Shown piece after piece: positions 33,420-50,788 of a DNA stretch of 64,000 nt. Location: NCBI GenBank assembly GCA_002373505.1, contig DFKE01000016.1, forward strand, positions 21,472 through 85,471, read 5' to 3'. This DNA comes from Bacteroidales bacterium UBA3653. GTDB lineage: Bacteria; Bacteroidota; Bacteroidia; Bacteroidales; Paludibacteraceae. Both the position numbers and the translations under genes were made by a program. Positions within the stretch are counted from its first letter, which is position 1. Each line of letters opens with the position of its first letter. The notes below the pieces were generated by a model. The model worked only from the letters and a program-made list of their open reading frames with translations, searched no databases and was not told the DNA's origin.

Positions 33420-34022
33420 TCACTGTACAGTTGATGTCCGTTTTTTGTATGCCCCGTACGCCACAGCCAAAGCGGTCATGAAGAGCGCAGCCGCCCAGTT
33501 AAAATCAAGAGGACACCAGCAATAGCCGGATTCTTCTTCACACGTACAATCGTTATCTCTCAATGTTGCTCCGCAGCTGGAGCAAACCCACTCATGCATA
33601 CCCGGACCATAATAATTCTCTATGTATTCCCAATGGCAATGCTCGCATACTTCCGGATGTCCGGGTATAGTATTTTTCCGCCTTCCGGAAACTTTATTTG
33701 ATGAGTGTGTTTCGCAAGTTGTTATTCCTCCCTGAACAGCAGAAGCGGCAGTATAGATACCTCTTACCTGCGTGTTATTAGAAGAGGTTTCTATAGTTCC
33801 TGCGTAGGAAGGCATATACTGCGTTCCATAGGAACTGGTAGAACTCATCGCAGCTACCGGTGCTTGCGCCATGACAGCACGAGTTCCCATAGAAGAACGC
33901 ATCGGGGCAGAGGTATGGATATACCCGTTGCGCCCTGCGCCTTTATAAGGAGAAGCATAACTTAGCGCGGAAGCACTAAGGGTGCATACTATTCCTACTA
34001 ATATCAATAATACCTTTTTCAA
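33420..34022 (-). CDS. hypothetical Cys-rich protein with signal peptide and C-terminal TM anchor
   Basis: 200-aa ORF lying 41 nt downstream of the 1788-aa gene. CEHCH...CSSCG...CTC...CWC cluster. C-terminal AAALFMTALAVAYGAY-KKR. Confidence 0.5.
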   Translation of the reverse strand: MKKVLLILVGIVCTLSASALSYASPYKGAGRNGYIHTSAPMRSSMGTRAVMAQAPVAAMSSTSSYGTQYMPSYAGTIETSSNNTQVRGIYTAASAVQGGITTCETHSSNKVSGRRKNTIPGHPEVCEHCHWEYIENYYGPGMHEWVCSSCGATLRDNDCTCEEESGYCWCPLDFNWAAALFMTALAVAYGAYKKRTSTVQ

Positions 34023-34062: not shown

Positions 34063-37000
34063 TTATTTGCGCACTACTGCGCCGGATGCATTATACAGCA
34101 CGCCGTCCTTGAGGATATATAGTTGGTTATCCTTGATAAACTTCTGTACATGTACTTCGCTTTCCACTTCATCCACCCCGGTTGCAATCGCCGGAATATC
34201 CGCTGCAATAATCTGGAAGCGTTCGGTTATTTCGCTGTTCGGCGCGGCGTTGAAGGTATATTCCACATCCTCGCTGAGAAGCATTTTGAAACCTGCTTCT
34301 TTATCCCACAGCATCCAGTTCTCCTCACTGTTAATATGGCTGAATGTCATCGTATAGGTCATTTCCTCGCCTGTGCGTACGCCTATGTGCGTTCCGTCTA
34401 TACTATTGGTAGCATTGACTGCCAAATAATCTTCATCTTCAACGGCAAAGACATTGAGCATGCCGTTCATCACCTTGTGTGCATCGAAACCGTCTTCATA
34501 TACATAATCGAAATTCTCCGACTCCATCATATACATATGATCACTCCATTCACCGGTTCGCAATGTCACTTGCAATGCGCCAGTCAGTTCCGTCTCCGCA
34601 GCTCTCACGCGCAAAGGAGTATTACTATTTACCGCATATTTTCCTTCCCAAACAAGTTTATTATAATCCAGTTTTATCTTGGCATCTTCGCCCGTAGCAC
34701 GCACACAGAATCCTTGCATAGACGGAATAACAGTAGGCAATGTCTCTTCTCCGAACGCACTCTTCATCAGTTTAGTTGCACCTATAGGAATAGAGATATA
34801 TTGTCCGGGAGCGTTATTGCCGGCTGCTCTACGGGCAGTGACGGCTTCTGCGTCTTCGCGCGAACCGGTATTGAAGAGATAAATTGTCTTCTCCATATTC
34901 TGGAAGTCCGCGTCCTCAAAACGGGTAATGTCTATCGGAGCAGTGAAACTGTTGGCTATCACATTAAATCCGGCTTCTTCGGATGTAGAAGTGTATGCCA
35001 GCGGAATCTGTACCGTTTCGTTTGATACTAACTGTCCGGCTTGCGAGATTAACAATCCGTCCTCGAAGAAGTCTTGGGTAGTGGCATAGCCTTTGAAGGG
35101 TTCCAAGATAAGATTCTTACGGTTGTTTTTCCATTCTCCAGTAGTTTCCTTCCAGTCATATATCCATCCGAAGAACACGGATTTTGCCTTAGTTCCTGCT
35201 ACTACAGGAGATCCCACATATTGCCAAGCAGCAGGGTTCGTCAAACCTAATTGATAATCACAATATCCTATGCTAAACAACTGTACGGTAGCTTCGGGCA
35301 TCGGCTCGCGGGTGTAGGGCGATATGCGGAGGTAGCCCGTCTGGCCTTTGGTAGCTCCAGTAGTACCGGCTTGGAGAATGAAATTGTCTTTGGTCGCATT
35401 TTTCACACCTCCGGCACCTACGGTCAGTCCTCCTGTCGGAGCGATAGTGACGGTAACAGGGTTGCCGGATTTATCATTCTCGATAACCAGACTATAGACG
35501 GATACTTCCTCGTCGATAACCAAGTCATGCTGCACAGAAACGACATGGCGATAATCCGGCTGCGTGTTGCGGTTCCAGTTGCCGCCCATTTGCCAGTCGG
35601 TGGTCTCGCCTGTTGTGCTTTCGCCATTGAAGATATATTCCTTACGGGCGAAGCGTGTGAGTGTTATCTCCTCGAATGCAAGCCATGCGCCGGGCACATA
35701 GGACGGGTTCTTGATTCCATAGCGGAGCGTTCCTGTGGTCTTACCTGGATCCGCCTCTATATAGACATATACATCGTTCAGATAGCGTTTGGCATCGTCA
35801 AAAGCATCTCCTGCGGAAGTCAGGTCCGTAGAGTAGTAATATCCGTCTCGCAACTCATCCGTCGGCTCCAACGGACTTACTTGGTAGGAATGATACAGGG
35901 ACTGGATCGGATATCTCACATCGTTGGCATAGATATAAGCCAACACGCTCTCCATTCCAGCTCCTGCGGTATGGCAAGCCCATGCCACATCGGCAGACGA
36001 GATACGGGAGAAAGCTTTTACTGTCAGGCGGTAGAATCCCGGCTGGAGACCGGAAATTTCGTTGTCATAGATAGCATTGGTTCCTGCTACACCGCTACGG
36101 TACTCTCCGCTTTGCTCTCCCAGTGTCAAAGCAGGGATAGTTATATCTGTCCGCTCAAAATCATTCTCTTCTACGCGGCTGCGCACTTTCTCCAGTGTCG
36201 TCACGTCTGTAGCGAAGTCATGCGAAGCCGCCTCAGCCGCTTCGCGGTTAAGAATTTCAAGGATGTGTGCCGGGTGTTCTGTATAATCTTCCATCTTCCA
36301 CCGGGTGGCAGCTGCTGCATCCGCCGTCAAGGCTAATGCATCGCCGTCCAGCGTGATATATTGTCCTTTGCGGCTGTCTCCCGGATACTCATTTCCGCTC
36401 TGGAAAGTAAGGATTGTACCATCTATCACATTCTGCTTCCAGAGATTATAGTTGTTAGCCGCTGTGCCGTCGTCAGTGTACATCTCATGGTTGTCCGCCT
36501 CGTAGAGATATTGCTGGTTATCGACGAAGAGGAAGCGGGTGTAGAAATTAGTATTATCATTGGTATAATTACTAATACGACATGCCATACCAAAATCATC
36601 CACTATCGCCTGCGTACCCCACTTGGCTCCGCGGCTCAGATAACGGCCGTCCGCCTCTGCACGGAGGTATTTGTATCCAACCAACTCCGAGATATTGATA
36701 TTACGGAAGTACCCCCAATAGTTACCGCTGAACGAGAAACGGATATAACGCGTTGTGGGAGACAATGGAATCTCATTGACAGATGTCCATTCTTTCTGTG
36801 CTTCTTCTGCCGTCCAGACAGATTTCCACGTGCTACCATCCGAAGATTCTTTCACTTCCCACATATGGAAGCCGAATGTATCTCCACCGGTAACAACCCA
36901 AATGCCTCCTGCACTCTTATACTCGAATGACAATCTCCCCGGCTGACCGTCAAAAGCGATGGTGAAATTCTTCTCAGCATGTTCCCAAATAAGGTCATCT

Positions 37001-39429
37001 ACCACGACATTAGTATTTCCGACGCGGACTCCGTTTTCGGAATCTTCCCATGCGCATTTATTTCCTGCCTCAACGGTTCCCTCATTGTAGATAGTTTTGA
37101 CTAACTGCATCGGGACAGAACGATCCGGGCGTTCACGCGGAGTGAAGGTGAATGTGGCAGATCCTGCTGCATAGTCTTCATTTTCTCCCTGACGGACAGT
37201 AATAGTGACAGGCTGCTTCTTGTTATATATATGCAAAGTTCCGTCTATTACTTGGGCCACAGAGGCGTCGTTGGTCTCAAACGTCAACGGGCAGTTAGCA
37301 TAGTCCGTATTGGTAGAAGAAGCCACATTAGCGATGTTGGTTCCTACAAAATAAGGCAAGTGGTTGGGGTTAAAAGAGAACTCCGGCGATGTCTTTCCGT
37401 TTCGGATACCGGTAAGAGGTATATTCAACTCATGTCCGGCGTTATCCACAATATGCAGTACTGCATTATAGGGGGCTTCTCCACGCACCTCGCCTTTATT
37501 GTCAAAGCGCACGGCAATCGTGAATGTACCATACAGATCGCGCCCCGTACCGGGAATAGATGAGCGCTCGATAGAGAAGAACTCCGCATCATCGCCTACA
37601 ATCTCCATAGTAGTCACACGGCCTGCGTTAGCATGGTTAAAAGTGACATTCTCTTCCTGCGTACCATAGTTGGCACCTTTTGTACCAAAGTCCACGCGAA
37701 CCGGGGATGCAGAGAACTGATTCAGTTCGGTGACATGGATATTTTTGAAATAGCCACCAAAATTGCCAGAATAACACAGACGCAAGTAACGAGTGGTTGG
37801 TAATAATTGTATATTTGTAGCACTTCCAGAGCCTGATGTTTGCTTTCCCCACTTTGAATCAATCCAATTGCTTCCATCTGAACTTTCTTTTACCCACCAT
37901 TCAACGCCCGTGGCACCACTTGCTTGTTTCTCATAATCAAAGGACAACTTATCCGGTATTCCTGAGAAGACTATATCGTAGTATTTGTCATCCCAATTAA
38001 GTCCACCGCCTCCATCTCCAAGTTTTATTCCACCATCCCATGAGAAGGAACCTTCAGAGCCATACTTGAATGGAATAGAATAGTTAGAAGAGGTAATTGT
38101 AAACGGTACATGGTTATTGAGTTCAACAGGGGTAACGACATATTTTGCCATTTTGCCTGCCCAGAGGTAGTTTTCCTCTTGGGTTACGGTAATATTTGCC
38201 GTTTCCTCTACATTGTAAATATGCAAAGTGTTATCAACTACTTTTGCCGATGCCTCATTATCGGATACAATCGTATAAGCGTTCGGACCGGTAGTAGAGA
38301 AGATGCTTGGGATTGTGGACTGGTAGTAATAAGTCTTGCCCGCCGAGTTCCATGTAAAGGTCGGAGTGTATTTTTTGATGGTAATTGTATGAGACTCTTC
38401 GTGTTCATTATAGCCGGTTGATGCATTTTGGTGCATTTTTACGACAACCTTTCCTGCCTTACCAAGAGACAACCATCTGTTATCTGTTATAGCAGGAGTG
38501 GTTCCATCTTCATTATTTTCTCCTTCTTCTTCATATGAGAAGAAAGAATAAGTAATTGCACCCGTTTTGTTATTACTAGTCCATAGTGCCTGCAAATCCA
38601 ACACCGCATCATCCACCATATATGAAGAAGCAATCTCATTCGTAAATGTCGGATCTACAACAGCAAAAGACGTACCTGTTACAGTTACATCCTTCGTTGC
38701 TCCATTTCCTGAAATCCTATATGTTGCAGTTGCATTGGTTACAGCAGAAGTCGGAGCGAATTTCACTGTAAACGTTGTTGTGTTGCTACAGTCTGTTATA
38801 CTTTGAGACGTAGGAGAAATAGTAAAGAAATTATTTGCGTCTGATTGTTCTGTCGCAGACAGAGTTACATTATCGGTTGAGTTTTGATAACTAACTACTA
38901 TCGTTTTCGTTGTATTTCCGCCAACAGGGGTATTGTCCATGGTTATATCTGATGCAGAAAGCGAAGCTGCATACTGGTAAGTTACTTTAATGTCTGTAAT
39001 ATTTACTTTCCTGTTTCCTCCAAAATTACGACTTGTCTGATCCAAAGAAAAGGAAGTTATGTTTTTTGTAGTAGAAAACGAGATACTTGGGGTTTGACTG
39101 CCACCATTGTCAACTTTTAGATTACTTTTAATTTTAATCGAAGTACCATCACTCGCATTTGCATATACATCGCAAGTAAGACTCTTACCTAAGAAGGTGG
39201 ATTCCAACTCAATTTTAAAAGAGATTTTGACTGCCAGATTGGGACTTTGAGACGCAATTGTACAAAATGTAACATCAAAGTTCTTGCGTTCATTGGAATA
39301 ATTACTGCAAGAGACATTATATGTGCAATCCGCAGTCCATGCCTTGGTATTGATGCCAAGGAGAGCAACTATAAGCAATAAAACATTAAGAAAATGCTTG
39401 GAATTATGACAAATATTCATCTTTTTCAT
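34063..39429 (-). CDS. very large secreted surface protein (Ig-like + discoidin-like modules, T9SS-like C-terminal tail)
   Basis: 1788-aa ORF with a signal peptide. Contains an internal duplicated supermodule and ESSDGS(N/T)W...TTRY(L/I)R discoidin-like signatures. C-terminus is LKDGVLYNASGAVVRK. Confidence 0.85.
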   Translation of the reverse strand: MKKMNICHNSKHFLNVLLLIVALLGINTKAWTADCTYNVSCSNYSNERKNFDVTFCTIASQSPNLAVKISFKIELESTFLGKSLTCDVYANASDGTSIKIKSNLKVDNGGSQTPSISFSTTKNITSFSLDQTSRNFGGNRKVNITDIKVTYQYAASLSASDITMDNTPVGGNTTKTIVVSYQNSTDNVTLSATEQSDANNFFTISPTSQSITDCSNTTTFTVKFAPTSAVTNATATYRISGNGATKDVTVTGTSFAVVDPTFTNEIASSYMVDDAVLDLQALWTSNNKTGAITYSFFSYEEEGENNEDGTTPAITDNRWLSLGKAGKVVVKMHQNASTGYNEHEESHTITIKKYTPTFTWNSAGKTYYYQSTIPSIFSTTGPNAYTIVSDNEASAKVVDNTLHIYNVEETANITVTQEENYLWAGKMAKYVVTPVELNNHVPFTITSSNYSIPFKYGSEGSFSWDGGIKLGDGGGGLNWDDKYYDIVFSGIPDKLSFDYEKQASGATGVEWWVKESSDGSNWIDSKWGKQTSGSGSATNIQLLPTTRYLRLCYSGNFGGYFKNIHVTELNQFSASPVRVDFGTKGANYGTQEENVTFNHANAGRVTTMEIVGDDAEFFSIERSSIPGTGRDLYGTFTIAVRFDNKGEVRGEAPYNAVLHIVDNAGHELNIPLTGIRNGKTSPEFSFNPNHLPYFVGTNIANVASSTNTDYANCPLTFETNDASVAQVIDGTLHIYNKKQPVTITVRQGENEDYAAGSATFTFTPRERPDRSVPMQLVKTIYNEGTVEAGNKCAWEDSENGVRVGNTNVVVDDLIWEHAEKNFTIAFDGQPGRLSFEYKSAGGIWVVTGGDTFGFHMWEVKESSDGSTWKSVWTAEEAQKEWTSVNEIPLSPTTRYIRFSFSGNYWGYFRNINISELVGYKYLRAEADGRYLSRGAKWGTQAIVDDFGMACRISNYTNDNTNFYTRFLFVDNQQYLYEADNHEMYTDDGTAANNYNLWKQNVIDGTILTFQSGNEYPGDSRKGQYITLDGDALALTADAAAATRWKMEDYTEHPAHILEILNREAAEAASHDFATDVTTLEKVRSRVEENDFERTDITIPALTLGEQSGEYRSGVAGTNAIYDNEISGLQPGFYRLTVKAFSRISSADVAWACHTAGAGMESVLAYIYANDVRYPIQSLYHSYQVSPLEPTDELRDGYYYSTDLTSAGDAFDDAKRYLNDVYVYIEADPGKTTGTLRYGIKNPSYVPGAWLAFEEITLTRFARKEYIFNGESTTGETTDWQMGGNWNRNTQPDYRHVVSVQHDLVIDEEVSVYSLVIENDKSGNPVTVTIAPTGGLTVGAGGVKNATKDNFILQAGTTGATKGQTGYLRISPYTREPMPEATVQLFSIGYCDYQLGLTNPAAWQYVGSPVVAGTKAKSVFFGWIYDWKETTGEWKNNRKNLILEPFKGYATTQDFFEDGLLISQAGQLVSNETVQIPLAYTSTSEEAGFNVIANSFTAPIDITRFEDADFQNMEKTIYLFNTGSREDAEAVTARRAAGNNAPGQYISIPIGATKLMKSAFGEETLPTVIPSMQGFCVRATGEDAKIKLDYNKLVWEGKYAVNSNTPLRVRAAETELTGALQVTLRTGEWSDHMYMMESENFDYVYEDGFDAHKVMNGMLNVFAVEDEDYLAVNATNSIDGTHIGVRTGEEMTYTMTFSHINSEENWMLWDKEAGFKMLLSEDVEYTFNAAPNSEITERFQIIAADIPAIATGVDEVESEVHVQKFIKDNQLYILKDGVLYNASGAVVRK

Positions 39430-39534
39430 ACCTTTTCTAATTTAAAACCCTGTTTTTGCCAAGTAGATTTATCAAATTGCCGATTTTTAATTTTTTATGG
39501 GGCATTTCGTAACAATCTACCGCAAAAAAGTGTG

Positions 39535-39566
39535 CAAAATTAAGATTTTTCTTTGAAACACGCAAA
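39535..39566 (-). promoter_or_regulatory. Bacteroidota-type promoter for the 1788-aa gene (TTTG / TAATTTTG)
   Basis: The reverse complement reads TTTGcgtgtttcaaagaaaaatctTAATTTTG with a 20-nt spacer, about 105 nt upstream of ATG 39429. Confidence 0.6.
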
Positions 39567-39732
39567 TTTATACACACTTTTCTCGCGCGAATAATAAGGA
39601 TATATAGCCGTTTCTTAAAAAGCGACACTTTTGTATGTTGTAAAACATGTATTTTGTTCCGTTTTTCGCAATTGTGCATTTATTATCGAAATATGCGACA
39701 TATTTATGCAACATTATGGTTCCGAAAGACAC

Positions 39733-39760
39733 AAAAAAAAGAAGGCGTTTTAACCTTCTT
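39733..39760 (-). terminator. intrinsic terminator ending the M6/179-aa/S24/PqqD transcription unit
   Basis: The minus strand reads aagaagg-ttaaaacg-ccttctt followed by a T-run. Confidence 0.55.
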
Positions 39761-39770
39761 TAAAGCCGAG

Positions 39771-39895
39771 GAGTCGTAATGACTCTTAATTGACTCTTAT
39801 TTGACTCTTATTTGCCCCTTACTTGCTGTCTTATTCTGTGTCTAATTTTGAGTCTTGTTTTGAGTCTTATTTGAGTCGTAAATGAGTCGTAAATG
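39771..39895. repeat. degenerate 11-nt-period array, about 11 units (GAGTCTTATTT-like)
   Basis: gagtcgtaat gactcttaatt gactcttattt gactcttattt gccccttactt gctgtcttatt ... gagtcttattt gagtcgtaaat gagtcgtaaat. It lies between the PqqD stop and the terminator. Confidence 0.85.
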
Positions 39896-39919: not shown

Positions 39920-40204
39920 TTACGCTTCAATGATTCCTGCTTCGCGCCATGAGTCGATAGTAGCAGATATATCGGTCATGGCTTGTTGCGGCGCGACGTC
40001 GAACTCTGCGCAGAGAGCCTTGCAGAGCGCCTGAGCATCAAAACAGCCTTTCTCACGGGTTAGTTCTTCCGCTTTCTCCCAAAGGAAAGCGGCGGTCTCG
40101 TTGAGGGTGATCATCTTGTTGAAATTGATGAGTGCCATCGACTCGCCTACCAAGATATACTCGTTGCCCAGTTTGCGGAGTTTAAATCCTTCTATTGTTT
40201 TCAT
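39920..40204 (-). CDS. PqqD family (RiPP-recognition-element-like) protein
   Basis: 94-aa ORF. KLRKLGNEYILVG...LNETAAFLWEKA...WREAGIIE matches my memory of the Bacteroidales PqqD-family pattern. Confidence 0.65.
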   Translation of the reverse strand: MKTIEGFKLRKLGNEYILVGESMALINFNKMITLNETAAFLWEKAEELTREKGCFDAQALCKALCAEFDVAPQQAMTDISATIDSWREAGIIEA

Positions 40205-40208
40205 AAAG

Positions 40209-40256
40209 CCATTTACAATTTAATCATTTACCATTTACAATTTATTTGTTCATTTA
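40209..40256 (-). repeat. family A array (reverse complement on the plus strand, so sense to the minus-strand genes) between S24 and PqqD genes
   Basis: ccatttacaatttaatcatttaccatttacaatttatttgttcattta. It contains the S24 stop (TAA, 40256..40254). Confidence 0.9.
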
Positions 40257-40718
40257 ACTATACAGCCATTTGAGGATGGTGTGGCGGTAGAGTTTGAGGA
40301 GGAAGGAGCGGTGGGGTTTGAGGCGCAGCCACAGTTTGCCACGCGTGAGGGGTTTGGTGCGACCGGAAGAGGTCTCGATGCGCGTTACGCGTCCGATGAT
40401 GCCAGTACGGGTACATGACTCCGTGCCGGAGAGGTTTCCATCTCCCATGAGGATATATAACGGTTCGCTTGTCTCTACTCCTTCTATGTCAATCAGCCGG
40501 TGCAGAACATATTTCTTCTGTCCATCCGAGGCATTTGCCTCCGCGAGAAGGAGATCTCCTTTCTTAGGCGAGCTATCCAGCGGCGAGAGAACGACAGAGT
40601 CTTTGTCTCCTTCGATAAACGGCCGCATGCTGACGCCGGAAGGCGTGAAACGCACTTCTTTTCCTTCAGCGAGCAGCCGTGCCAGTTCGGGGATCAATAT
40701 ATCGTTTTCTATTCGCAT
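40254..40718 (-). CDS. S24/S26 family peptidase (Ser/His, SipW/Sec11-like motifs, no TM segment)
   Basis: 154-aa ORF with SGVSMRPF (nucleophile box), VLHRLI and MGDGN. No N-terminal hydrophobic anchor. Confidence 0.65.
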   Translation of the reverse strand: MRIENDILIPELARLLAEGKEVRFTPSGVSMRPFIEGDKDSVVLSPLDSSPKKGDLLLAEANASDGQKKYVLHRLIDIEGVETSEPLYILMGDGNLSGTESCTRTGIIGRVTRIETSSGRTKPLTRGKLWLRLKPHRSFLLKLYRHTILKWLYS

Positions 40719-40725
40719 TTATTTG

Positions 40726-41265
40726 TTATTCGGGTTTGTAGATAAAGCATCCGGGACAGCCGGAGAGGTCAACATAAATATAATCTATCTGCTTGATATA
40801 CACTTTGTCCGAACTATAAGCTATACGAACATAGTAATCCCCTGCGCGCGGCATTTTAACGGTAGTCAAACTGCTGGAAACTTGTCTTGTTGCTATATCG
40901 TGCCATTCGCTTCCGTCTGTGGAAATAGAAACCGTCATAGCTCTTTTCGCATAAGGAGAGTACACGATGCGTAAACTATCCAAGTTTTGAATTTTAGACG
41001 TTTCCACTTTCTCCCCAGAGTTCTCCAGAAAGATAGCCGTTTTATATTCTGTTGTCTCACTTGCAGAAAACTCTGCTCCACCGGAACAAGTATAAGTAAC
41101 CAAGTCGGTTATACCTGTTTGGTTGGTGTTTTCTACCTTCAGTTTCTTCGGTGATGCATTGAACATGGCATCAAAGTCATGCGGAAGAGTTCTCGTCTCA
41201 GCTCCGGAGATGATGGGGCTGAGAGAGAACAAGCAGATGAGGACATAACGAATGTGGGTTTTCAT
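40726..41265 (-). CDS. hypothetical secreted protein (single discoidin-like module)
   Basis: 179-aa ORF with a signal peptide and STDGSEWHDI...GDYYVRIAY. Its ATG abuts the stop codon of the upstream M6 protease gene. Confidence 0.6.
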   Translation of the reverse strand: MKTHIRYVLICLFSLSPIISGAETRTLPHDFDAMFNASPKKLKVENTNQTGITDLVTYTCSGGAEFSASETTEYKTAIFLENSGEKVETSKIQNLDSLRIVYSPYAKRAMTVSISTDGSEWHDIATRQVSSSLTTVKMPRAGDYYVRIAYSSDKVYIKQIDYIYVDLSGCPGCFIYKPE

Positions 41266-43611
41266 TTATTCGAGGCGTGCACCGGTAAGAGAGTAAACTT
41301 CGTTTCCAACGAGGATGACCATTTGTCCGTTTCGGATTGCCTTGACGGCAGTCGGTTGTTCCGCCTCGGTGTGTTCAATCGCCGTTTGACCACCGTTGCA
41401 GGAAGTGGTGTAGTTGCTGTATCCTACTCCCGAGCCTTCCCAGACGAAGGTAATCTTGTCCATATACAGCGCCCCATTGTTCGAGCGGACACCCACGAAG
41501 GTGTAGTCCCCCGTGATTGCCAGTTCGGTAGCCGTGCCGCTTGCGATAGAGCCTAATTTGGTTCCTCTTCCCGAAGCGTCATAGAGGTCGGAAGGATCGG
41601 TATAAGCACTGTTCTTGCCGTATATATCCAGCGAGCGGTCGGAAGTGTTGCTATTCCATACCACTTGCACTTTCGCCAGTTTGCCGCCGGAAGCGGTAGT
41701 GACGATACCTGAATTGCTATTCTTGGAGCGTAGCTGTATGGCGTCATTGCCTCCTGCGCTCTGTCCGGCATAGACGGCATCCGATGTGGCTGTTACACCG
41801 CTCCACGAAGCATAGTTCGTTCCTGAAACGCCTGTGGACGAAAGCGTCAGTTCGTCGCTTATTTCCACCGTTGCTTCGCCGGTTTGGGTTGCAAAGACTG
41901 CGTAGAAAGTAGCAGGTTCAGCGATAGCGTCTCCGGCATTGACGAGCGTCGGAGCGGTAGTAGCGGAGCTGTAGTTCTCCGCGGCAGTCCAGCCGACGAA
42001 GACCGTTCCTTCGCATGCCTCGGGTTCGTTAGTCGGCAGTACTATTTTTCCTGTGCTTGTCGTCGTAGCGAAATCCGCTCCGTTGGCCATGAAGGTGAGC
42101 GTGAACGGATCTACGACAGGCGTGGGTTCCTCGATATAGGTGAGGGTCACGATCTGATTACTCTCCTTGATATTCAAGAGCGGTTTGCCGCTAACGCCCG
42201 TCCAAGAAGTCTTCTTACCGGTTCCAGGGAAGGGATTCTTCGGGCAGTTGTCGGTCGAGCCATCCCAACCAATAGCTGTTCCGGTAGCGGAAACAACGGT
42301 ATAGAGTGGAGCTCCGCTGGTTTCTGAGTTATTCGGCGCGTTATTTTCCCAAGCGGATTCATTGAAATTGATTTTCCAGATGAGCATGCCGTGTCCCGTG
42401 AGCGGTGCATCCCAACCCACAGCCTGACGGTTTTCGATATAATAGCGCAGACCGGAAGTGGTCGGACTAACATACGTGCCGGAAGCATTGATCTGATAAG
42501 TCTGATAGTTCTCCGTGCCGTTGGCATAGAGCGTTACATTCTGCCCTTCATTACCCAAGTTAATCGGTGTTAACCAACCGAAGAAATCTTTCTCCCACGG
42601 ATCGTAGTTAGGCGGGCAGTGACCATCGGCATTGTAGGAACCGCCATCCATGATATTCCAGTCGTTCGGCGTAAGACAATTATCATAAACCGTTCCATAA
42701 TCTGTATCGTACAGATCCGGCAGACCCATTACGTGACCGAACTCATGGCAAAGCGTTCCGATACCACCGAGCGAACTACCGGATATCTCACCGGACATAG
42801 CATAGTTATCGAGTTTTTTACCGCCTACTTTGCACTGTGCTTCGGTATAGGTGCAATTTCCGTAATAACGCGCGGATTCAACAGACCAGTTGTGGGGCCA
42901 GATGGTCTCTGACGAGCCACCATCCGCTTGTCCTTTACCGGCATAGATGACATAGACGAAATCGACATAGCCATCTGAATCGGAGTCATAGTCCGCCCAG
43001 TTGATGGTAAACTGCTCGTTAGCGAGGATACAAGCCTCTACGACAGCGTCGGTAGCATGTTGGTCATCACCCTCTTTAGCGCCGTCCGTTCCATAATAGG
43101 CCACGTTGCGGCTAAGGGTCACTGGTCCGAAGACATCAAACTGCGGACGATAGCTACCATTGGACTGATCCGCAAAATACTGACCTGCAGAAGGATAACC
43201 GCTATTCACGGTACAATTGGTCGAGTTACAAAGCTCATCAAAGGTAGCTTGCGTATGACCGGATTGCATCGATTTATTGGAGAAATTTGCCAGAATGACA
43301 ACTCCTTTCGGAGCAAGGTTCGGCGTAACGCCTACTTCTTTGCGTTGACGTCGAGCAACGGCTTTTGCTCGACGTGCTTTGGCAACTGCCTCTGTCGGTG
43401 CTTCTCCTACCTCCACATACATGCCGTTGACCTCGCGGACCTGTTTGCCCTCGCGATTAATCATGTAATGGTAGAACTCGTCTCCAAATTGTTGAATCTC
43501 GATGGTCGTACCATCTGCTTGTGTGCGCGTTTGCCATCCTCGGCGCGCGGGTACTGCGCTTGCTGTCACAGCAAGAACGCATAAGAAAAGAAATGATAAA
43601 ATCTTCTTCAT
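41266..43611 (-). CDS. M6-family (immune-inhibitor-A-like) zinc metalloprotease with T9SS-like C-terminal tail
   Basis: 781-aa ORF with a signal peptide. HEFGH at 42733..42747 followed by GLPDLYD. C-terminus is RNGQMVILVGNEVYSLTGARLE. Confidence 0.8.
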   Translation of the reverse strand: MKKILSFLFLCVLAVTASAVPARRGWQTRTQADGTTIEIQQFGDEFYHYMINREGKQVREVNGMYVEVGEAPTEAVAKARRAKAVARRQRKEVGVTPNLAPKGVVILANFSNKSMQSGHTQATFDELCNSTNCTVNSGYPSAGQYFADQSNGSYRPQFDVFGPVTLSRNVAYYGTDGAKEGDDQHATDAVVEACILANEQFTINWADYDSDSDGYVDFVYVIYAGKGQADGGSSETIWPHNWSVESARYYGNCTYTEAQCKVGGKKLDNYAMSGEISGSSLGGIGTLCHEFGHVMGLPDLYDTDYGTVYDNCLTPNDWNIMDGGSYNADGHCPPNYDPWEKDFFGWLTPINLGNEGQNVTLYANGTENYQTYQINASGTYVSPTTSGLRYYIENRQAVGWDAPLTGHGMLIWKINFNESAWENNAPNNSETSGAPLYTVVSATGTAIGWDGSTDNCPKNPFPGTGKKTSWTGVSGKPLLNIKESNQIVTLTYIEEPTPVVDPFTLTFMANGADFATTTSTGKIVLPTNEPEACEGTVFVGWTAAENYSSATTAPTLVNAGDAIAEPATFYAVFATQTGEATVEISDELTLSSTGVSGTNYASWSGVTATSDAVYAGQSAGGNDAIQLRSKNSNSGIVTTASGGKLAKVQVVWNSNTSDRSLDIYGKNSAYTDPSDLYDASGRGTKLGSIASGTATELAITGDYTFVGVRSNNGALYMDKITFVWEGSGVGYSNYTTSCNGGQTAIEHTEAEQPTAVKAIRNGQMVILVGNEVYSLTGARLE

Positions 43612-43650: not shown

Positions 43651-43682
43651 CAAAGGTACGGCTTTTTTTTCAGATACACAAA
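43651..43682 (-). promoter_or_regulatory. Bacteroidota-type promoter for the M6-protease/PqqD operon (TTTG / TACCTTTG)
   Basis: The reverse complement reads TTTGtgtatctgaaaaaaaagccgTACCTTTG with a 20-nt spacer. Confidence 0.65.
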
Positions 43683-44061: not shown

Positions 44062-46509
44062 ATGAAAAAACTTTTCACATTAGCCGCTGCCGTATTGGCA
44101 AGCATGGCAATGAATGCGGATGTAATTTTTGGTCCGTTTACCTTGACGGCAGACAACAATGTCAAGGACCAAGTAACTACTGTGGATGGCGGTAACGTCA
44201 CAGTTACGACTGCTTTCGCAACCAGTGGCAGTAACGAAGTAACCGTCAATGAGCAGACATTCTACAAGTTCAACTCATCTTCTGCAATCACATGTGCACT
44301 TGCCGATGCAGCCACTTTTGAGGAAGGAGATTCCATCGTAATTTTGACAGCATCTCATGCTAGCAGCAAAAAGACCACCGGTGTCAAGCTGAACAACTCT
44401 ATTGAAGTTACCGGTGAGATTCCGGGCGGCGAAGCGATTGAAGTCTATTACATTGTACAAGCCGAAGACGGCATTGCAGGTACAAATAGTTTTACCGTAA
44501 ACCGTTATAACAGCGACTCGAAATTCGGTACGATTACCGTTTATCGTCCAGGCGAAGTAATTCCTTCGACCGATCCTGTAGCATCTGTTACAGTTGACGG
44601 TCCGGCAAACGGCGCTATCGGTTTCGAGGCTACCTTCACCGCTAATACGGATGTAAAGGCCGATGCATACAAATGGTATGTAGATGGTGCAGAACAAGAG
44701 GGTGCTACCGCAAAGACGTTTGCTTTCACTCCGACCGCAGAGCGCACTTATCGCATCATGGCAGCAGCCAAGAATGAGTACAATGCTGATTTCGTACAGA
44801 GTGCAGGTGTTGATTTCGTAGTAACCAAACTCTGCGGCGAGTTAATCAAGGCTACCCACGTCAACAAGAACACAGCAACCGTTACCGGCGTAGTAGGCGG
44901 TACGGCAGACAAGAACACGCAGGACGGCGGTAAATTAGGTTCCAACGGTCACTATTTCGGTGTCAAGTTGGCTTCGGGTTCGTTCATGGCAGGCGATGTA
45001 GTAACTATCGTTGCTTCCTTACTCAACGGCGGTAATACCGCTACTATCTATTCCGACAAGGGCGAGAACCTGTTGGGTAGTGTAGATTTTGACGCAGAGA
45101 CCCTGACCGCCACCTATACACTGACCACTTCGGCCGAAGCAATCTATGTATATCGTACTTCTTCTGCTTGCAATCCGAATATCGAGAGCATTTCCGTTAC
45201 CCGTTCTTGCGAAGCAAGCAGCAATGCGGAGCTGGCAAAACTGACCGTTAACGGTGTTGAGGTAGAGCCGGAAGAAGGTGGTCTGCTGTATGTTTATACC
45301 TTGAGCGCTTCCTATACAGAGCCGACCGTAACTATCGCACTCACCTTAGCTCATCCGTTGGCTACCATCAAATATGATTTGAGCAACCCGTATGAGATGG
45401 AGACTCCCGAGGCGGGCAGCAACAAAGGACAAGCTTTCACTATTATCGCTGAGGATGGCACAGAGAAGACCTATACCGTTCGGATTTACAAATCCAATAC
45501 GCTGAACGATGACTGGACTTTAAGTGCTCTGTCCGTTGATGGTTTTGAGTTGAGTCCGGCATTTGAGAATCCGTACGTTGTGATGTACACGATTACCAAG
45601 CCATACGGAACTCCGGATCCGGAATTGAGTGCTCTTCATTACACGTTGAATGACCCGAACGCTACCGCAGAGGCTTCTATGCCTGATGGGCAACATCAGT
45701 ACTTGATTGCTTGTACCGCAGAGAATGGCACCAGCACGAACAATTATGTGATTGACATCATTGAAGCTCCTGCAAAGAAAGACTTGTTAGAGGTTAGCTT
45801 CAGCAACGGTGTTAATGGTTATATTGCAGCCGGTGAGATCAATGTTCCTTACTTGGCAGGCAAAACAGAGCCGAGTTTCGTAGAGGCTAAGTTCTGGAAT
45901 GCAGACGGCGAGCCGAGTGCAGAGATCGTTGAGGGCAAACTCGTTGTAACCGGAGCAGACAGTCAAACGGCTGAATATACCATCAACTATATTCCTGTTA
46001 CCCCGATGGCGGTAGATAACCAAGAAGTTACGTTCGATGCAGTTCCTTCGTACATCTACTCTGTTTACGGATGGGATGCAAGCAAGGGTGTCAAGTTTAG
46101 CAAAGATGTAGAAGAAGCGGGCAACCATCGTATCTCCGAGGGTAAGGATCGTATCTATATCGCTCTGCCGGGTGCTAGAGAAGTTATTCTGACCAGCGGT
46201 AGCGGCGGCAAACGTCCTATCAAGGTGACCGTAAACGGTGTTGTGGACGAGTCCATTACCCAGACCGCGGCAAGTGGCGAGAGCATCACTATCGCCCTCT
46301 CCGAGGCTGTTGAAGGTAACTTCATCGGTATTGAGAGCAATGGTAACAACGGCGACGGAGGTTTCACTAACATCAAAGTGAACGGCTGGCCGACCGCTAT
46401 CGACAACACCGACGCAGCGGTTAAGGCTACCAAGCGCGTGATCAACGGCGTTCTCTTCATCGAGAAGAACGGCGTGCTCTACAACGCACAGGGCGCTATT
46501 GTTAAGTAA
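44062..46509 (+). CDS. secreted surface protein with Ig/cadherin-like beta-sandwich repeats and T9SS-like C-terminal tail
   Basis: 815-aa ORF with a signal peptide. NAELAKLTVNGVEV... cadherin-like segments. C-terminus is INGVLFIEKNGVLYNAQGAIVK. Confidence 0.75.
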   Translation: MKKLFTLAAAVLASMAMNADVIFGPFTLTADNNVKDQVTTVDGGNVTVTTAFATSGSNEVTVNEQTFYKFNSSSAITCALADAATFEEGDSIVILTASHASSKKTTGVKLNNSIEVTGEIPGGEAIEVYYIVQAEDGIAGTNSFTVNRYNSDSKFGTITVYRPGEVIPSTDPVASVTVDGPANGAIGFEATFTANTDVKADAYKWYVDGAEQEGATAKTFAFTPTAERTYRIMAAAKNEYNADFVQSAGVDFVVTKLCGELIKATHVNKNTATVTGVVGGTADKNTQDGGKLGSNGHYFGVKLASGSFMAGDVVTIVASLLNGGNTATIYSDKGENLLGSVDFDAETLTATYTLTTSAEAIYVYRTSSACNPNIESISVTRSCEASSNAELAKLTVNGVEVEPEEGGLLYVYTLSASYTEPTVTIALTLAHPLATIKYDLSNPYEMETPEAGSNKGQAFTIIAEDGTEKTYTVRIYKSNTLNDDWTLSALSVDGFELSPAFENPYVVMYTITKPYGTPDPELSALHYTLNDPNATAEASMPDGQHQYLIACTAENGTSTNNYVIDIIEAPAKKDLLEVSFSNGVNGYIAAGEINVPYLAGKTEPSFVEAKFWNADGEPSAEIVEGKLVVTGADSQTAEYTINYIPVTPMAVDNQEVTFDAVPSYIYSVYGWDASKGVKFSKDVEEAGNHRISEGKDRIYIALPGAREVILTSGSGGKRPIKVTVNGVVDESITQTAASGESITIALSEAVEGNFIGIESNGNNGDGGFTNIKVNGWPTAIDNTDAAVKATKRVINGVLFIEKNGVLYNAQGAIVK

Positions 46510-46630: not shown

Positions 46631-46664
46631 CCGTGCCCCCCCCTCGAAGGAGGGAGAAAAGGGG
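46631..46664 (+). repeat. GC-hairpin element (family P variant), intergenic
   Basis: ccgtgcccccccctc-gaa-ggagggagaaaagggg. Confidence 0.7.
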
Positions 46665-46701
46665 ATATCGTACCGCTGTGGTGCCGGTTTCGTTCCGGAC
46701 A

Positions 46702-46735
46702 TCCTGTGTTAATCCTGTGTTAATGCTGTGTTGGG
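46702..46735. repeat. 11-nt-period array CCTGTGTTAAT x3, about 65 nt upstream of a promoter
   Basis: tcctgtgttaatcctgtgttaatgctgtgttggg. Confidence 0.85.
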
Positions 46736-46802
46736 ATATTGAGAGAGGAGGACAGAGGAAAAGCAGGAAAAGGGCAAGGGAGGGACGAAAAAAGCACAAA
46801 GA

Positions 46803-46834
46803 TTTGCGTATATCAAAAAAAAGTTGTAAATTTG
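46803..46834 (+). promoter_or_regulatory. Bacteroidota-type promoter for the CE12-like gene (TTTG / TAAATTTG)
   Basis: TTTGcgtatatcaaaaaaaagttgTAAATTTG with a 20-nt spacer. Confidence 0.6.
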
Positions 46835-46933
46835 CACGCTTTTTGTATTCCAATACAAAATACGAGACCGGAACAGGATATAACAAAACATAAATAAAAT
46901 TATTCACAAAACCATTAAAAAACACAAGTCAAG

Positions 46934-48823
46934 GTGAAGAAAATTATATCTATTCTGATGACGGCGATGATCGGGCTGCCACTGGCGAACGGAGCCGTAA
47001 AAGTACACACTATCGGTGACAGTACGATGGCCGAGTACGACGAGAACACCACCGACAAGCGCGGCTGGGGAATGTATCTGGGTTCGTTCTTCGACCCGGC
47101 TTTTGTGACCGTGAACAACCGCGGCAAATCAGGCGCAGACACCCGCAGTTTCTACACCGGAGCCGCTTATTGGCCGAGCATGAAGAGCCAGATGAGCGCA
47201 GGGGATTACCTCATTATTCAGTTTGCACACAACGACGAGGGTACCGTTACCAACGGAATGGATAATTTAGAGTACGCTGAATATTGTCAGGCGAAGGGTT
47301 TGCCGGCTCCTACGGACACGCGCGGGACGAACCCGCAGACCACTTACCGTGATTTTCTGCGCCTGTTCATTGACGAGGCACGTGAGTTGGGCGTCAACCC
47401 GATTCTGGTAGGTCCGATATGCCGCAAGTATTTCAGCAACGGCAATATCCGGCGCAACGGTCAGCACGACTTGGGTGACAAATTCAGCAAAATAGAGAAC
47501 GGCGTTCTCTATGAGAACCAGAGCCTTCCTGCCAATGACTCGTCCATGAGTTACGTACATGCCATGCGCGAGGTGGCGAAAGAGAAGAACGTGCCGTTCC
47601 TGAACCTGACGGAAGCAACCCGTCAGATGTATCTAGAGTACGGCGAGGCACAATGCACGCAGCTGCTGTTCTGCAACGGCGACAACACGCACACGAATGC
47701 CATGGGCGGCAACCTGATTGCCCGCCAGGCAGCGCAGATGATGAAAGACGCAGGTATATTGGCTGAACATATCAATATTCCGACATCCATCACTGCCAAC
47801 CCGACATCGATAGAGATCGGCGAGACGTACAGCGGCGTAGCGCAGAACAAAGAGTTTTTGCTGACGGGATTCGGTCTGGAGCCCGCGAGCGGCACGGTAT
47901 CGCTTCATGCGACAGGCGCGCTGACGATCTCGACAGACAAAGAGAACTATGACAAGACCGCTTCCGTGGATTACGCCGGAAGCACCTTGTTCCAAAAGAT
48001 CTACGTGCGCGCTATCTATGAGAACGCAGGCGAGAACAAAGACTCTGTCGTAGTTACTTTCGGCGAGAACAGTGTGTCCGTCCCCGTGACAGCAAGCGTC
48101 ATCTCTCTGGAAGGCGGCAGCGCCGTAAGCGCAACCTGGACGGTGAACGCCAAACCGATGCCGGAACCGGAAATAACAGGCCCGATCAGCGCAGCGTTCA
48201 CGATGAACAACATGGCGTATATCGATTATAACAGCAGTAGCAAGAATTATTTCACCGACGGCGAGGAGACCGGTCTGACCTTGGGACGTTTCCATAACTC
48301 CGCAGACGGGAGTAGCCGCACTCCTTGGCCCGCAGGCGAGATAGACGAGAACGCGAGCCGCTATCTGGATTTCGCCATCACCGCTCCTGCTGCCATGGAG
48401 GTCCGTATCACCAAAATCTCGATGGCTATTGGAGCCGACGGCACATCCACCATGTGTTACCATATCAACACCGGATTCGGCGACGGTTTCACCGGTGTGA
48501 AGACCATTGCCGAGAGACAACACATGGCCAACCGTGTAGTGGAGCACGCTGATATTACTCCCACCCTGACTATCCCCGCCGGGGAGACGCTGCACGTACG
48601 GATCCTGCCGTGGCATGACCTCGGAGAAGAGAAGGACAGCAAGTACATCTGTCTGCGCAGCGTGAAGATAGAGGGTCAGGCTTTCGAGCCGGGCGAAGAG
48701 GGAAACCTCTCCCCGACCCTCCCTTCAAGGGAGGGAGTAAAGATACTCCGGGACGGTGTGCTGCTGATTGAGCAGAACGGCGTGGTTTACAATGCGCAGG
48801 GCATGGTTTTAATACGAAAATAA
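46934..48823 (+). CDS. SGNH/CE12-like (rhamnogalacturonan acetylesterase-like) protein with C-terminal extension and T9SS-like tail
   Basis: 629-aa ORF with GTG start. KVHTIGDSTM (GDS block), GKSGADTRSF, DNTHTN. C-terminus is LRDGVLLIEQNGVVYNAQGMVLIRK. Confidence 0.7.
   Translation: MKKIISILMTAMIGLPLANGAVKVHTIGDSTMAEYDENTTDKRGWGMYLGSFFDPAFVTVNNRGKSGADTRSFYTGAAYWPSMKSQMSAGDYLIIQFAHNDEGTVTNGMDNLEYAEYCQAKGLPAPTDTRGTNPQTTYRDFLRLFIDEARELGVNPILVGPICRKYFSNGNIRRNGQHDLGDKFSKIENGVLYENQSLPANDSSMSYVHAMREVAKEKNVPFLNLTEATRQMYLEYGEAQCTQLLFCNGDNTHTNAMGGNLIARQAAQMMKDAGILAEHINIPTSITANPTSIEIGETYSGVAQNKEFLLTGFGLEPASGTVSLHATGALTISTDKENYDKTASVDYAGSTLFQKIYVRAIYENAGENKDSVVVTFGENSVSVPVTASVISLEGGSAVSATWTVNAKPMPEPEITGPISAAFTMNNMAYIDYNSSSKNYFTDGEETGLTLGRFHNSADGSSRTPWPAGEIDENASRYLDFAITAPAAMEVRITKISMAIGADGTSTMCYHINTGFGDGFTGVKTIAERQHMANRVVEHADITPTLTIPAGETLHVRILPWHDLGEEKDSKYICLRSVKIEGQAFEPGEEGNLSPTLPSREGVKILRDGVLLIEQNGVVYNAQGMVLIRK
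48704..48742 (+). repeat. GC-hairpin element (family P, 39 nt), in-frame in the CE12-like gene
   Basis: aacctctccccgaccctccc-ttcaa-gggagggagtaaag encodes NLSPTLPSREGVK, immediately before the C-terminal tail. Confidence 0.9.
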
Positions 48824-50423: not shown

Positions 50424-50759
50424 ATGAGAAAAGTATTATTGATGGCTTTTATAGCCATATTGGGAATGGGCGTCTATGCCCAGCAGCCGGCTAAAGTACC
50501 GGCTTACCGCGGCATGATCGAGCGCGTGCAGCCGAACGGGTACACGCTGCGCACCTTCCTGCGCGGAGACGAACACAAACACTGGATGATGACCGAAGAC
50601 GGATGGTTGATCCGCGAGAACAAAAAAGGATGGCTGAAATACGCCAAGGTGAACCGCAAAGGCGAGATTGTAACCAGTTGCCGAAAAGCCAAAAACGTAG
50701 AGGACCGGACCAAATGCCAGAAGAAATGGCTGGAGAAGCACGGAGTGAAGAGGAATTGA
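50424..50759 (+). CDS. small secreted protein homologous to the N-terminal pro-region of the two M6 proteases
   Basis: 111-aa ORF with a signal peptide. VPAYRGMIERVQPNGYTLRTFLRGDEHKHW aligns by eye with VPARRG...GDE(F/H)(Y/F)H of both proteases. Confidence 0.55.
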   Translation: MRKVLLMAFIAILGMGVYAQQPAKVPAYRGMIERVQPNGYTLRTFLRGDEHKHWMMTEDGWLIRENKKGWLKYAKVNRKGEIVTSCRKAKNVEDRTKCQKKWLEKHGVKRN

Positions 50760-50787
50760 TAATTGAGAATTGAGAATTGAGAATTGG
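50752..50787. repeat. GAGAATT family array containing the stop of the 111-aa gene
   Basis: ggaattgataattgagaattgagaattgagaattgg. TGA at 50757/50764/50771 covers all three frames. The next ATG is at 50789. Confidence 0.9.
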
Positions 50788-50788
50788 T

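Follow-up and report, generated by a model that had tools for sequence, protein, structure and literature searches.

In lasso peptide biosynthesis a stand-alone B1 protein, i.e. a recognition element (RRE) for peptides that are made on the ribosome and modified after translation (RiPPs), delivers the leader of the precursor to the B2 protease (PMC5067487), and lasso precursors share a conserved leader motif, YxxPxL (PMC10368454). In lasso clusters HPr-kinase homologues also phosphorylate the precursor and a nucleotidyltransferase adds hexoses to it (PMC8498205). A second arrangement that places a PqqD protein beside a protease is the AMP_c423 locus of gut metagenome-assembled genomes (MAGs). 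As the AMP-SEMiner preprint describes it (bioRxiv 10.1101/2025.01.13.632881), an uncharacterised protein, in most cases with a signal peptide, has PqqD and a cytoplasmic Peptidase_S24 as its consistent flanking neighbours; antiSMASH marks the locus as RRE-containing, and the authors propose processing by Peptidase_S24/PqqD. Here we analyse a gene pair of this general kind in 64,000 nucleotides of Bacteroidales bacterium UBA3653, a member of the Paludibacteraceae (contig DFKE01000016.1, positions 21,472 to 85,471; this whole stretch is called the window below). The pair encodes a PqqD-family protein of 94 amino acids (aa) and a putative peptidase of 154 aa. On balance we favour the reading that the two proteins form a cytoplasmic processing module which comes from a lasso-like cassette and is now coupled to a Cys-tailed secreted protein, its likeliest substrate.

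Results

The pair lies among four adjoining open reading frames (ORFs) on the minus strand, of 94, 154, 179 and 781 aa. A first-pass annotation, made from the sequence alone, had read these as one unit running from a promoter to a terminator, and the ORFs and both signals were found where it had placed them. The intergenic gaps are 0 nt between the 781-aa and 179-aa genes, 7 nt between the 179-aa and 154-aa genes and 49 nt between the 154-aa and 94-aa genes. The features on which the argument rests are the following.

39920..40204, minus strand: stand-alone PqqD-family protein, an RRE, 94 aa (PF05402)
40254..40718, minus strand: predicted soluble peptidase with the LexA/signal-peptidase (S24/S26) fold, 154 aa, with a C-terminal basic helix (family homology, model, invariant residues)
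40631-40629, 40502-40500 and 40442-40440, minus strand: codons of the predicted catalytic residues Ser30, His73 and Asp93
40726..41265, minus strand: secreted protein, 179 aa, with a signal peptide, a beta-sandwich resembling carbohydrate-binding modules (CBMs) and galactose-binding domains, and a C-terminal Cys tail; the conserved third partner (model, Foldseek, synteny)
40729..40764, minus strand: codons of the tail, SGCPGCFIYKPE; family motif C-x(1,2)-C-[FL]-x-[YVF]...end (motif scan, alignment)

A predicted soluble Ser/His peptidase

The motifs SGVSMRPF, LHRL and GDGN are all present in the 154-aa protein, and from them the first-pass annotation had proposed an S24/S26-type peptidase with the Ser/His arrangement of endoplasmic reticulum (ER)-type signal peptidases and no membrane anchor. 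The arrangement and the missing anchor were borne out, and the family assignment held for the relatives of the protein better than for the protein itself, which had no match in a Pfam scan and reached only a sub-threshold score with TIGR02228 (archaeal-type signal peptidase; E 0.0045, 16.9 bits, cut-off 51.85). Homologues at E ~1e-21, on the other hand, pass PF00717 (Peptidase_S24; 34.6 versus 23.3 bits), and precomputed annotation places PF00717 in many members of the family and PF10502 (Peptidase_S26) in one. Some close homologues already carry the NCBI label 'S24/S26 family peptidase'. The family is large, with at least 1385 representative clusters at 50% identity.

An AlphaFold model of the 154-aa protein, built from a 64-sequence alignment, had a predicted local distance difference test (pLDDT) score of 94.3. 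Its top Foldseek matches were SEC11A/C, the catalytic subunits of the human ER signal peptidase, followed by SpsB, lambda cI, LexA and UmuD (probability 1.00 each, E ~3e-3, template modelling score ~0.4-0.5); Foldseek also showed the fold to be common to SipA, a non-catalytic pilus chaperone. When profiles were aligned, the SM-P, HR and GDGN of the family fell on the GSMEP, HRV and GDNN of SEC11A. Across 115 aligned sequences (the query and 114 representatives with mutual identity of at most 50%) G28, S30, M31, P33, H73, R74, G92 and D93 are invariant, G94 is present in 114, and E100 and W130 are nearly invariant. S30, H73, R74 and D93 are also invariant in all 87 sequences taken from loci, including those of the kinase-less clade described below, so that the Ser and His singled out by the first-pass annotation vary in neither set. 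The predicted general base is a His and not the Lys of the LexA/UmuD/cI family.

The maximum Kyte-Doolittle hydropathy over 19 residues is 0.46, and the protein has no membrane-spanning segment and no signal peptide, so that its predicted location is the cytoplasm. Its C-terminus forms a basic helix with a net charge of +7 in a single-domain protein in which the Pfam scan gave no helix-turn-helix match. By fold and conserved residues we assign it to peptidase clan SF (S24 LexA-like/S26 signal peptidase) as a putative enzyme with an ER-type Ser/His centre. It is not to be filed as a signal peptidase, because it has neither membrane anchor nor signal peptide; for the same reason the outer face of the membrane is beyond its reach. 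Nor should it be filed as a LexA-like repressor.

Fusions of S24-like domains were also seen. Six have an N-terminal HprK/ScmC-like kinase (P0140, P0162, P0165, P0175, P0180, P0264), and single cases join a CPBP/Rce1 intramembrane protease, an M50 fragment, NlpC/P60 and SH3 domains, or CBM9 (P0253, P0184, P0160 and P0247, respectively).

A predicted recognition element of lasso-B1 type

The 94-aa protein matches PF05402 (E 1.3e-14, 54.7 bits, cut-off 23.4), the hidden Markov model (HMM) by which the first-pass annotation had suggested checking its PqqD assignment, and gives sub-threshold NCBIfam matches to TIGR04353 and to the lasso PqqD model NF033530. The best solved match of the family profile is the lasso-peptide B1 protein TfuB1 (6jx3_B, E 4.2e-6), with weak matches to other lasso B1 chaperones. 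On this sequence evidence the protein is a stand-alone RRE of lasso-B1 type. The beta-sheet half of the PqqD protein is strongly conserved across the cassette types described below. Direct sequence searches of the peptidase and PqqD against the PDB gave nothing meaningful; profiles and fold comparison worked instead.

The pair is conserved in three kinds of locus

Scanning a single genome for each species gave 184 loci; the 80 that were retained all come from Paludibacteraceae or other Bacteroidales, mostly of rumen and gut. The search used a 12-sequence alignment, the 64-sequence profile being too diverse. The closest locus, in a roe-deer rumen Paludibacteraceae MAG, is 97% identical. Of 81 species-level sequences, 80 have a PqqD homologue as the next gene downstream of the peptidase, i.e. 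the linkage of the two genes is genuine, as first proposed, and is both tight and ancient. The loci fall into three groups.

Group 1, the clade of the window: 57 loci, with a secreted Cys-tailed protein directly upstream and no kinase
Group 2, kinase type: 16 loci, with a ~290-aa P-loop protein adjoining the pair
Group 3, other: 8 loci with neither; four have a giant cargo of the type IX secretion system (T9SS), a 250-aa membrane protein, a 61-aa membrane protein, the peptidase and PqqD

No locus has both the kinase and the tail gene. In a neighbour-joining distance tree all loci with an upstream Cys-tailed gene form a single clade nested among kinase-bearing lineages, which places the origin of the pair in a cassette of RiPP type.

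The kinase-type cassette resembles lasso clusters

Eight further independent lineages outside the clade were sampled through the protein collection. All eight have a ScmC-like kinase, the S24 peptidase and PqqD; NTP_transf_5 comes next in five of them, and five have an ABC exporter. The kinase is annotated as PF27840 (precomputed) and is HprK-related by NCBIfam; kinase::peptidase fusion proteins exist. Two of the eight cassettes (L089 and L091) have adjoining small precursor-like ORFs, '...IYEKPQIEVIEMEMEDGVLLSASSGG...GAW' and '...QYEAPRMEVIEMEIEGPILQMSGEDSSTRPW'. The motif common to both is absent from all other DNA fetched and contains Y-x-x-P-x-[I/M] (YEKPQI, YEAPRM). This leader, and the roles that B1/B2, HPr-kinase homologues and nucleotidyltransferases are known to have in lasso clusters, are why the Bacteroidales kinase cassette looks, by analogy, like a lasso-derived cluster that has no cyclase and has a Ser/His peptidase in the position of B2.

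The candidate precursors themselves (L089 5914-6081, 55 aa; L091 10277-10417, 46 aa) each end in a C-terminal Trp, lie beside kinase-S24-PqqD-NTP_transf_5-ABC cassettes and match no curated family. A lipoprotein gene stands directly 3' of each, and that of L091 has weak Mfa_like_1 and Fib_succ_major matches.

Neither the window nor its clade retains the full set of these genes. Homologues of the cassette kinase, NTP_transf_5 and ABC exporter were not found in the window, and a few clade loci have an ABC match 4-7 kb away, mostly on the opposite strand. Neither the window nor any of the 57 clade loci has a leader motif of YxxPxL/EVIEME type, even inside large proteins. A search for small ORFs and leaders, as the first-pass annotation had advised, likewise found no conserved precursor in the window or the clade loci, in agreement with its own failure to see one; the small ORFs that recur are PqqD, alternative frames and spurious ORFs of promoter regions. 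No Asn-synthetase-like cyclase (C) or transglutaminase-like protease (B2) is present in the scanned window genes or the Pfam-annotated related loci. A scan of the main ORFs at 28-58 kb turned up glycoside hydrolases, MlaE/ABC proteins, a further M6 protease, a GDSL esterase and polysaccharide genes, and no radical-SAM, cyclase, YcaO, transglutaminase or Asn-synthase gene, which agrees with the earlier statement that modifying enzymes are missing here. The window is thus not a lasso cluster, having no B2, no cyclase and no YxxPxL precursor, and not a RiPP cluster in the general sense, having neither precursor nor modifying enzyme; the RRE and the peptidase remain.

A secreted protein with a Cys tail is the third partner

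The first-pass annotation called the 179-aa protein 'discoidin-like', which was roughly right: it has a signal peptide and a galactose-binding/CBM32-like beta-sandwich (pLDDT 84, Foldseek matches to CBM32, CBM6 and GH84-associated domains), and residues 174-179 are modelled with a pLDDT below 50. All of its homologues are unnamed or called 'hypothetical protein'. A homologue stands at position -1 in 42 of the 72 loci in which the ORF caller found the peptidase. The 179-aa family evolves fast and the tail is its most conserved segment, with D166, L167, S168, C170, C173, F174, Y176 and P178 invariant in the alignment and a near-invariant form in the clade, C-x(1,2)-C-F-x-Y-x-P-E.

When all 3753 ORFs of at least 100 aa were scanned, the tail motif was found near the C-terminus of 54, and 53 of these are the gene directly upstream of the peptidase, so that the coupling is virtually exclusive. 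The strict pattern is present in 47 of the 57 clade loci, four further loci have variant tails and one has an extension. Two upstream families are involved (~180 aa and ~275 aa), whose bodies have no detectable similarity; what they have in common is limited to a signal peptide, the tail and their position. The stop codon of the upstream gene overlaps the start of the peptidase gene by 1 or 4 nt in 27 of the 40 loci that could be scored cleanly. A survey of gene neighbourhoods had been proposed as the way to find a conserved third partner of the pair; by its Cys tail and the stop/start overlap that partner is the 179-aa protein, and not the M6 protease.

The M6 protease and other neighbours

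The remaining features of the locus are listed next; the giant and the 200-aa protein count only as associated with the module.

41266..43611, minus strand: secreted M6 (InhA-like) metalloprotease of 781 aa that bears the shared C-terminal tag (PF05547, E 3e-22; TIGR03296, E 5e-54)
43651..43682, minus strand: Bacteroidetes-type -33/-7 promoter 5' of the M6 gene (direct sequence reading)
39738..39761, minus strand: intrinsic-terminator-like hairpin of 9 pairs followed by a T-run, the end of the unit (terminator scan)
39780..39895, no strand: tandem array in the 3' untranslated region, after the PqqD stop and before the terminator; 11-nt period, ~9.5 copies, plus-strand consensus TGAGTCTTATT
34063..39429, minus strand: giant secreted protein, 1788 aa, with the shared C-terminal tag and its own promoter region
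33420..34022, minus strand: Cys-rich protein, 200 aa, encoded immediately downstream of the giant gene; signal peptide, C-terminal membrane anchor

The two profile matches uphold the identification of the M6 metalloprotease in the first-pass annotation, and the similarity that it had seen between the N-termini of the two M6 proteases and a 111-aa ORF (VPA.R...GDE..H) is real. This free-standing ORF, at 50424-50759(+), encodes a signal peptide and an M6 N-terminal pro-region homologue and lies directly upstream of the second M6 gene. Of the 57 clade loci, 33 have an M6-like gene directly upstream and the other 24 lack one, and none was seen within 7 kb of the pair in the other architectures. 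The M6 protease is therefore a frequent, probably co-transcribed neighbour that is dispensable, and it is unlikely to be a required partner or the substrate.

The promoter elements are TTTG (43682-43679), a 20-nt spacer and TAccTTTG (43658-43651), which we take to match the Bacteroidetes consensus; a sigma-70 promoter scan cannot detect a promoter of this type. The 11-nt array is shared only with the closest relatives, L007 and L009, and was not found in eight more distant relatives that were checked. The terminator scan also flags a short GC hairpin at 40750-40764(-), within the codons of the SGCPGC tail, which is probably a coincidence of Gly, Cys and Pro codons. GC content is slightly lower at 33-53 kb (0.43-0.49, compared with 0.51-0.55 elsewhere in the window), and an Rfam scan found no family within 33-53 kb. 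PADLOC gave no match for the three window proteins, the kinase or the nucleotidyltransferase, and the reading as an anti-phage defence system was dropped for want of such matches.

Downstream of the pair, 36 of the 57 clade loci encode a homologue of the giant protein in the same orientation. Giants that are distantly related to it lie upstream of the pair in the four rearranged loci of group 3 (L068, L070, L073 and L082; ~3.5-10.9 kb in L068), where all genes are on a single strand in the order given for that group and the 250-aa protein has membrane segments at both ends. These giants match TIGR04183 (T9SS type A sorting domain), and a ~400-aa region is 22-26% identical to the giants of the window type. 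The 200-aa Cys-rich protein has no family match. It has a Ser/Thr/Ala-rich linker with a conserved 'MAQAPVA.M.STS' and 'VRGIYTSASAIQGG', a Cys-rich region, 'CWCPL...W' before the anchor and then 'YKKR'. Homology between it and the 250-aa proteins was considered and ruled out (hhalign probability 27%, membrane segment only). The conserved promoter region 5' of the giant gene, at 39437-39700(-) and in equivalent positions of related loci, yields spurious 53-80-aa ORFs that cluster across loci, and a similar sequence precedes the GDSL gene of the window (~46650-46900).

A C-terminal tag of ~25 aa (consensus ...VKVLRNGQLYIIRNGVVYNATGARVK) is common to five large secreted proteins, encoded at 34063-39429(-), 41266-43611(-), 44062-46509(+), 46934-48823(+) and 50777-52330(+), i.e. 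confined to 34-52 kb of the window. Tagged ORFs number 15.4 per 100 kb in clade loci (at least one in all 56), compared with 1.1 per 100 kb in kinase-type loci. The tag is not recognised by NCBIfam as a T9SS sorting domain, and this identification was dropped. It may be an undescribed sorting or docking signal. A likeness by eye to the post-leader region of the kinase-type precursors was also rejected, as a tag HMM gave no match to them.

Discussion

Proposed mechanism

The first-pass annotation suggested recognition plus cleavage, and this appears to be the right kind of explanation because the relatives of the pair sit in RiPP-type cassettes. We propose that PqqD would bind a short linear segment of the substrate as an added beta-strand, as its family does, and present it to the 154-aa peptidase, which would then cleave it. 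The module would descend from the widespread Bacteroidales cassette in which an HprK-like kinase (ScmC) accompanies the S24 peptidase and PqqD, and to which NTP_transf_5 and an ABC exporter are often added. In the clade of the window the kinase would have been lost, with no NTP_transf_5 or adjacent same-strand ABC exporter accompanying the pair, and translation of the module would have become coupled to that of a CBM-like protein which is exported by Sec and whose C-terminal tail is nearly invariant.

The likeliest single substrate is the co-encoded 179-aa protein, which would be processed, most plausibly at its tail, while still in the cytoplasm and not yet exported, although we put the chance of this at appreciably below even. 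The bufferin family is a precedent for cytoplasmic modification of Sec-exported RiPP-like proteins. A bolder version, which we offer tentatively and regard as somewhat unlikely, is that an RRE-guided Ser/His peptidase trims or releases a Cys-containing C-terminal 'follower' tail of a Sec-exported lectin-like protein while this is still in the cytoplasm, in a RiPP-style maturation of a folded secreted protein. In this version the enzyme would represent a new RRE-dependent class that replaces lasso B2 across Bacteroidales, and the product would act within an island of surface proteins with an undescribed C-terminal tag.

Several points weigh against the proposed module and substrate. The peptidase of the window itself lies below every curated HMM threshold, and the literature yields no proteolytic activity, peptide binding or substrate for any member of the family. 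The proposed substrate has a Sec signal peptide and the module is cytoplasmic, and processing must therefore precede export; in the model, moreover, the strand just before the tail belongs to the folded beta-sandwich, and no YxxPxL motif occurs in the tail. In four clade loci (L019, L025, L037 and L048) the pair appears intact but has no tail gene beside it. Some kinase-type cassettes lie among housekeeping genes with no visible precursor, and a distant substrate is therefore common in the family. Finally, the clade is monophyletic, and its conserved neighbourhood is therefore one maintained evolutionary event and not many independent associations.

Alternative explanations

The pair in the window could alternatively be an orphan RiPP remnant that processes a small YxxPxL-type precursor encoded elsewhere in the genome, with co-expression as its only link to the 179-aa gene. 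We regard this as unlikely, but as a serious contender. Several kinase-type cassettes (L087, L093, L096 and L103) have no nearby precursor, the conservation of the PqqD beta-sheet half between cassette types suggests a similar ligand, and the four clade loci without the tail gene fit as well. However, neither the 64-kb window nor any clade locus among the 57 was found to contain such a precursor, the kinase, NTP_transf_5 and exporter homologues that would go with it are missing from the window (the distant ABC matches in a few clade loci apart), and mere co-expression would not explain the exclusivity of the tail or the overlap of its stop codon with the peptidase start. A different substrate altogether would be the ~25-aa tag, with the module acting on the tagged secreted proteins around it (the M6 protease, the giant, the GDSL esterase and others) as a sorting or assembly system. 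The clustering of tagged proteins around the module and their enrichment in clade loci speak for this, as does a tag-bearing M6-like gene directly upstream of the peptidase in four loci, with a 4-nt overlap in L019. The enrichment may, however, merely reflect synteny conserved within one clade; the tag is a lineage-wide signal that is found in kinase-type loci too, its profile has no similarity to the kinase-type precursors, and the tagged proteins are Sec substrates whereas the module is cytoplasmic. This explanation is quite improbable.

The substrates first suggested for the pair, the N-terminal pro-regions of the M6 proteases and of their 111-aa homologue, did not survive the analysis of loci and now seem very improbable. 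The similarity of the pro-regions and the abutment of the M6 and 179-aa genes in the window are as first described, but an M6 gene accompanies the pair in little more than half of the clade loci and in none of the other architectures within 7 kb. The pro-regions are moreover exported, because Sec signal peptides precede them, whereas both proteins of the pair are cytoplasmic; the 111-aa homologue is encoded 10 kb off, beside a different M6 gene. We think it similarly far-fetched that the 154-aa protein does not cleave substrates at all, and is a LexA-like self-cleaving regulator or a SipA-like inactive chaperone for which PqqD serves as adaptor. The fold is common to LexA, UmuD, lambda cI and the non-catalytic SipA, and the absence of activity data can be counted in favour of this view. 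Against it, the single-domain protein has no DNA-binding domain and no evident internal Ala-Gly-type self-cleavage segment, its predicted general base is not the LexA-family Lys, and a Ser/His/Asp centre that is invariant over at least 1385 clusters argues for catalysis.

If the family is active, it would add a new fold, i.e. a soluble ER-type Ser/His enzyme resembling signal peptidases, to the known RRE-dependent leader peptidases, and with its 1385 or more clusters at 50% identity it would mark out an extensive, so far unstudied cassette of lasso origin in the Bacteroidales of gut and rumen. The clade of the window shows how a module of this kind can lose the genes for tailoring and export and come to be joined to a secreted protein instead. 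With three small genes, it offers a direct test of RRE-guided cleavage that acts on a protein and not on a small peptide. The analysis also corrects the natural reading of the locus, in which the pair serves the M6 protease.

Comparison with known systems

The split lasso B1/B2 leader peptidase (PadeB1/PadeB2 of paeninodin, TfuB1) resembles the window in having a stand-alone PqqD-type RRE gene beside the gene of a small cytoplasmic protease, and TfuB1 is the closest solved relative of the PqqD family of the window. However, lasso B2 is a transglutaminase-like Cys protease, whereas the protease here has a Ser/His centre in an S24/S26 fold. Phosphorylated and glycosylated lasso clusters share with the sister cassettes the same accessory set (HPr-kinase homologue, NTP_transf_5 nucleotidyltransferase and ABC exporter) and precursors with a YxxPxL leader. 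Lasso clusters have a cyclase, whereas no locus that we examined has one, and the window also has no kinase, nucleotidyltransferase, exporter or small precursor.

The ER/archaeal-type signal peptidases (SEC11A/C, SipW; MEROPS S26B) are similar in fold and profile match, in the use of Ser-His(-Asp) instead of Ser-Lys and in the aligned SM-P, HR and GD-N. The peptidase of the window differs from them in having no transmembrane anchor or signal peptide, in its extra N- and C-terminal helices, in being paired with an RRE and in its TIGR02228 score (16.9 versus 51.85 bits). Also close is the Bacteroidales kinase cassette, whose peptidase and PqqD families are orthologous, with ~38-57% identity to the peptidase of the window, the same adjacent order and identical catalytic residues. 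In contrast to that cassette, the clade of the window has no kinase, NTP_transf_5 or adjacent same-strand exporter, and has a secreted Cys-tailed protein upstream instead. Literature searches found no characterisation or experimental study of the kinase-type cassette; RRE-Finder does not mention this S24 and RRE family, and searches on S24 with RRE and on ScmC were noisy or empty.

AMP_c423 resembles the window in the arrangement described for it. The preprint proposes removal of a signal peptide that releases an antimicrobial fragment, and contains no analysis of the peptidase family, of a kinase-type cassette or of a Cys tail. The gene-level annotations are thus already known, and the arrangement was noticed in that 2025 preprint; what appears to be new is the analysis at the level of the family, the connection with a lasso-like cassette of kinase type, the Cys tail and the demotion of the M6 protease from partner to neighbour.

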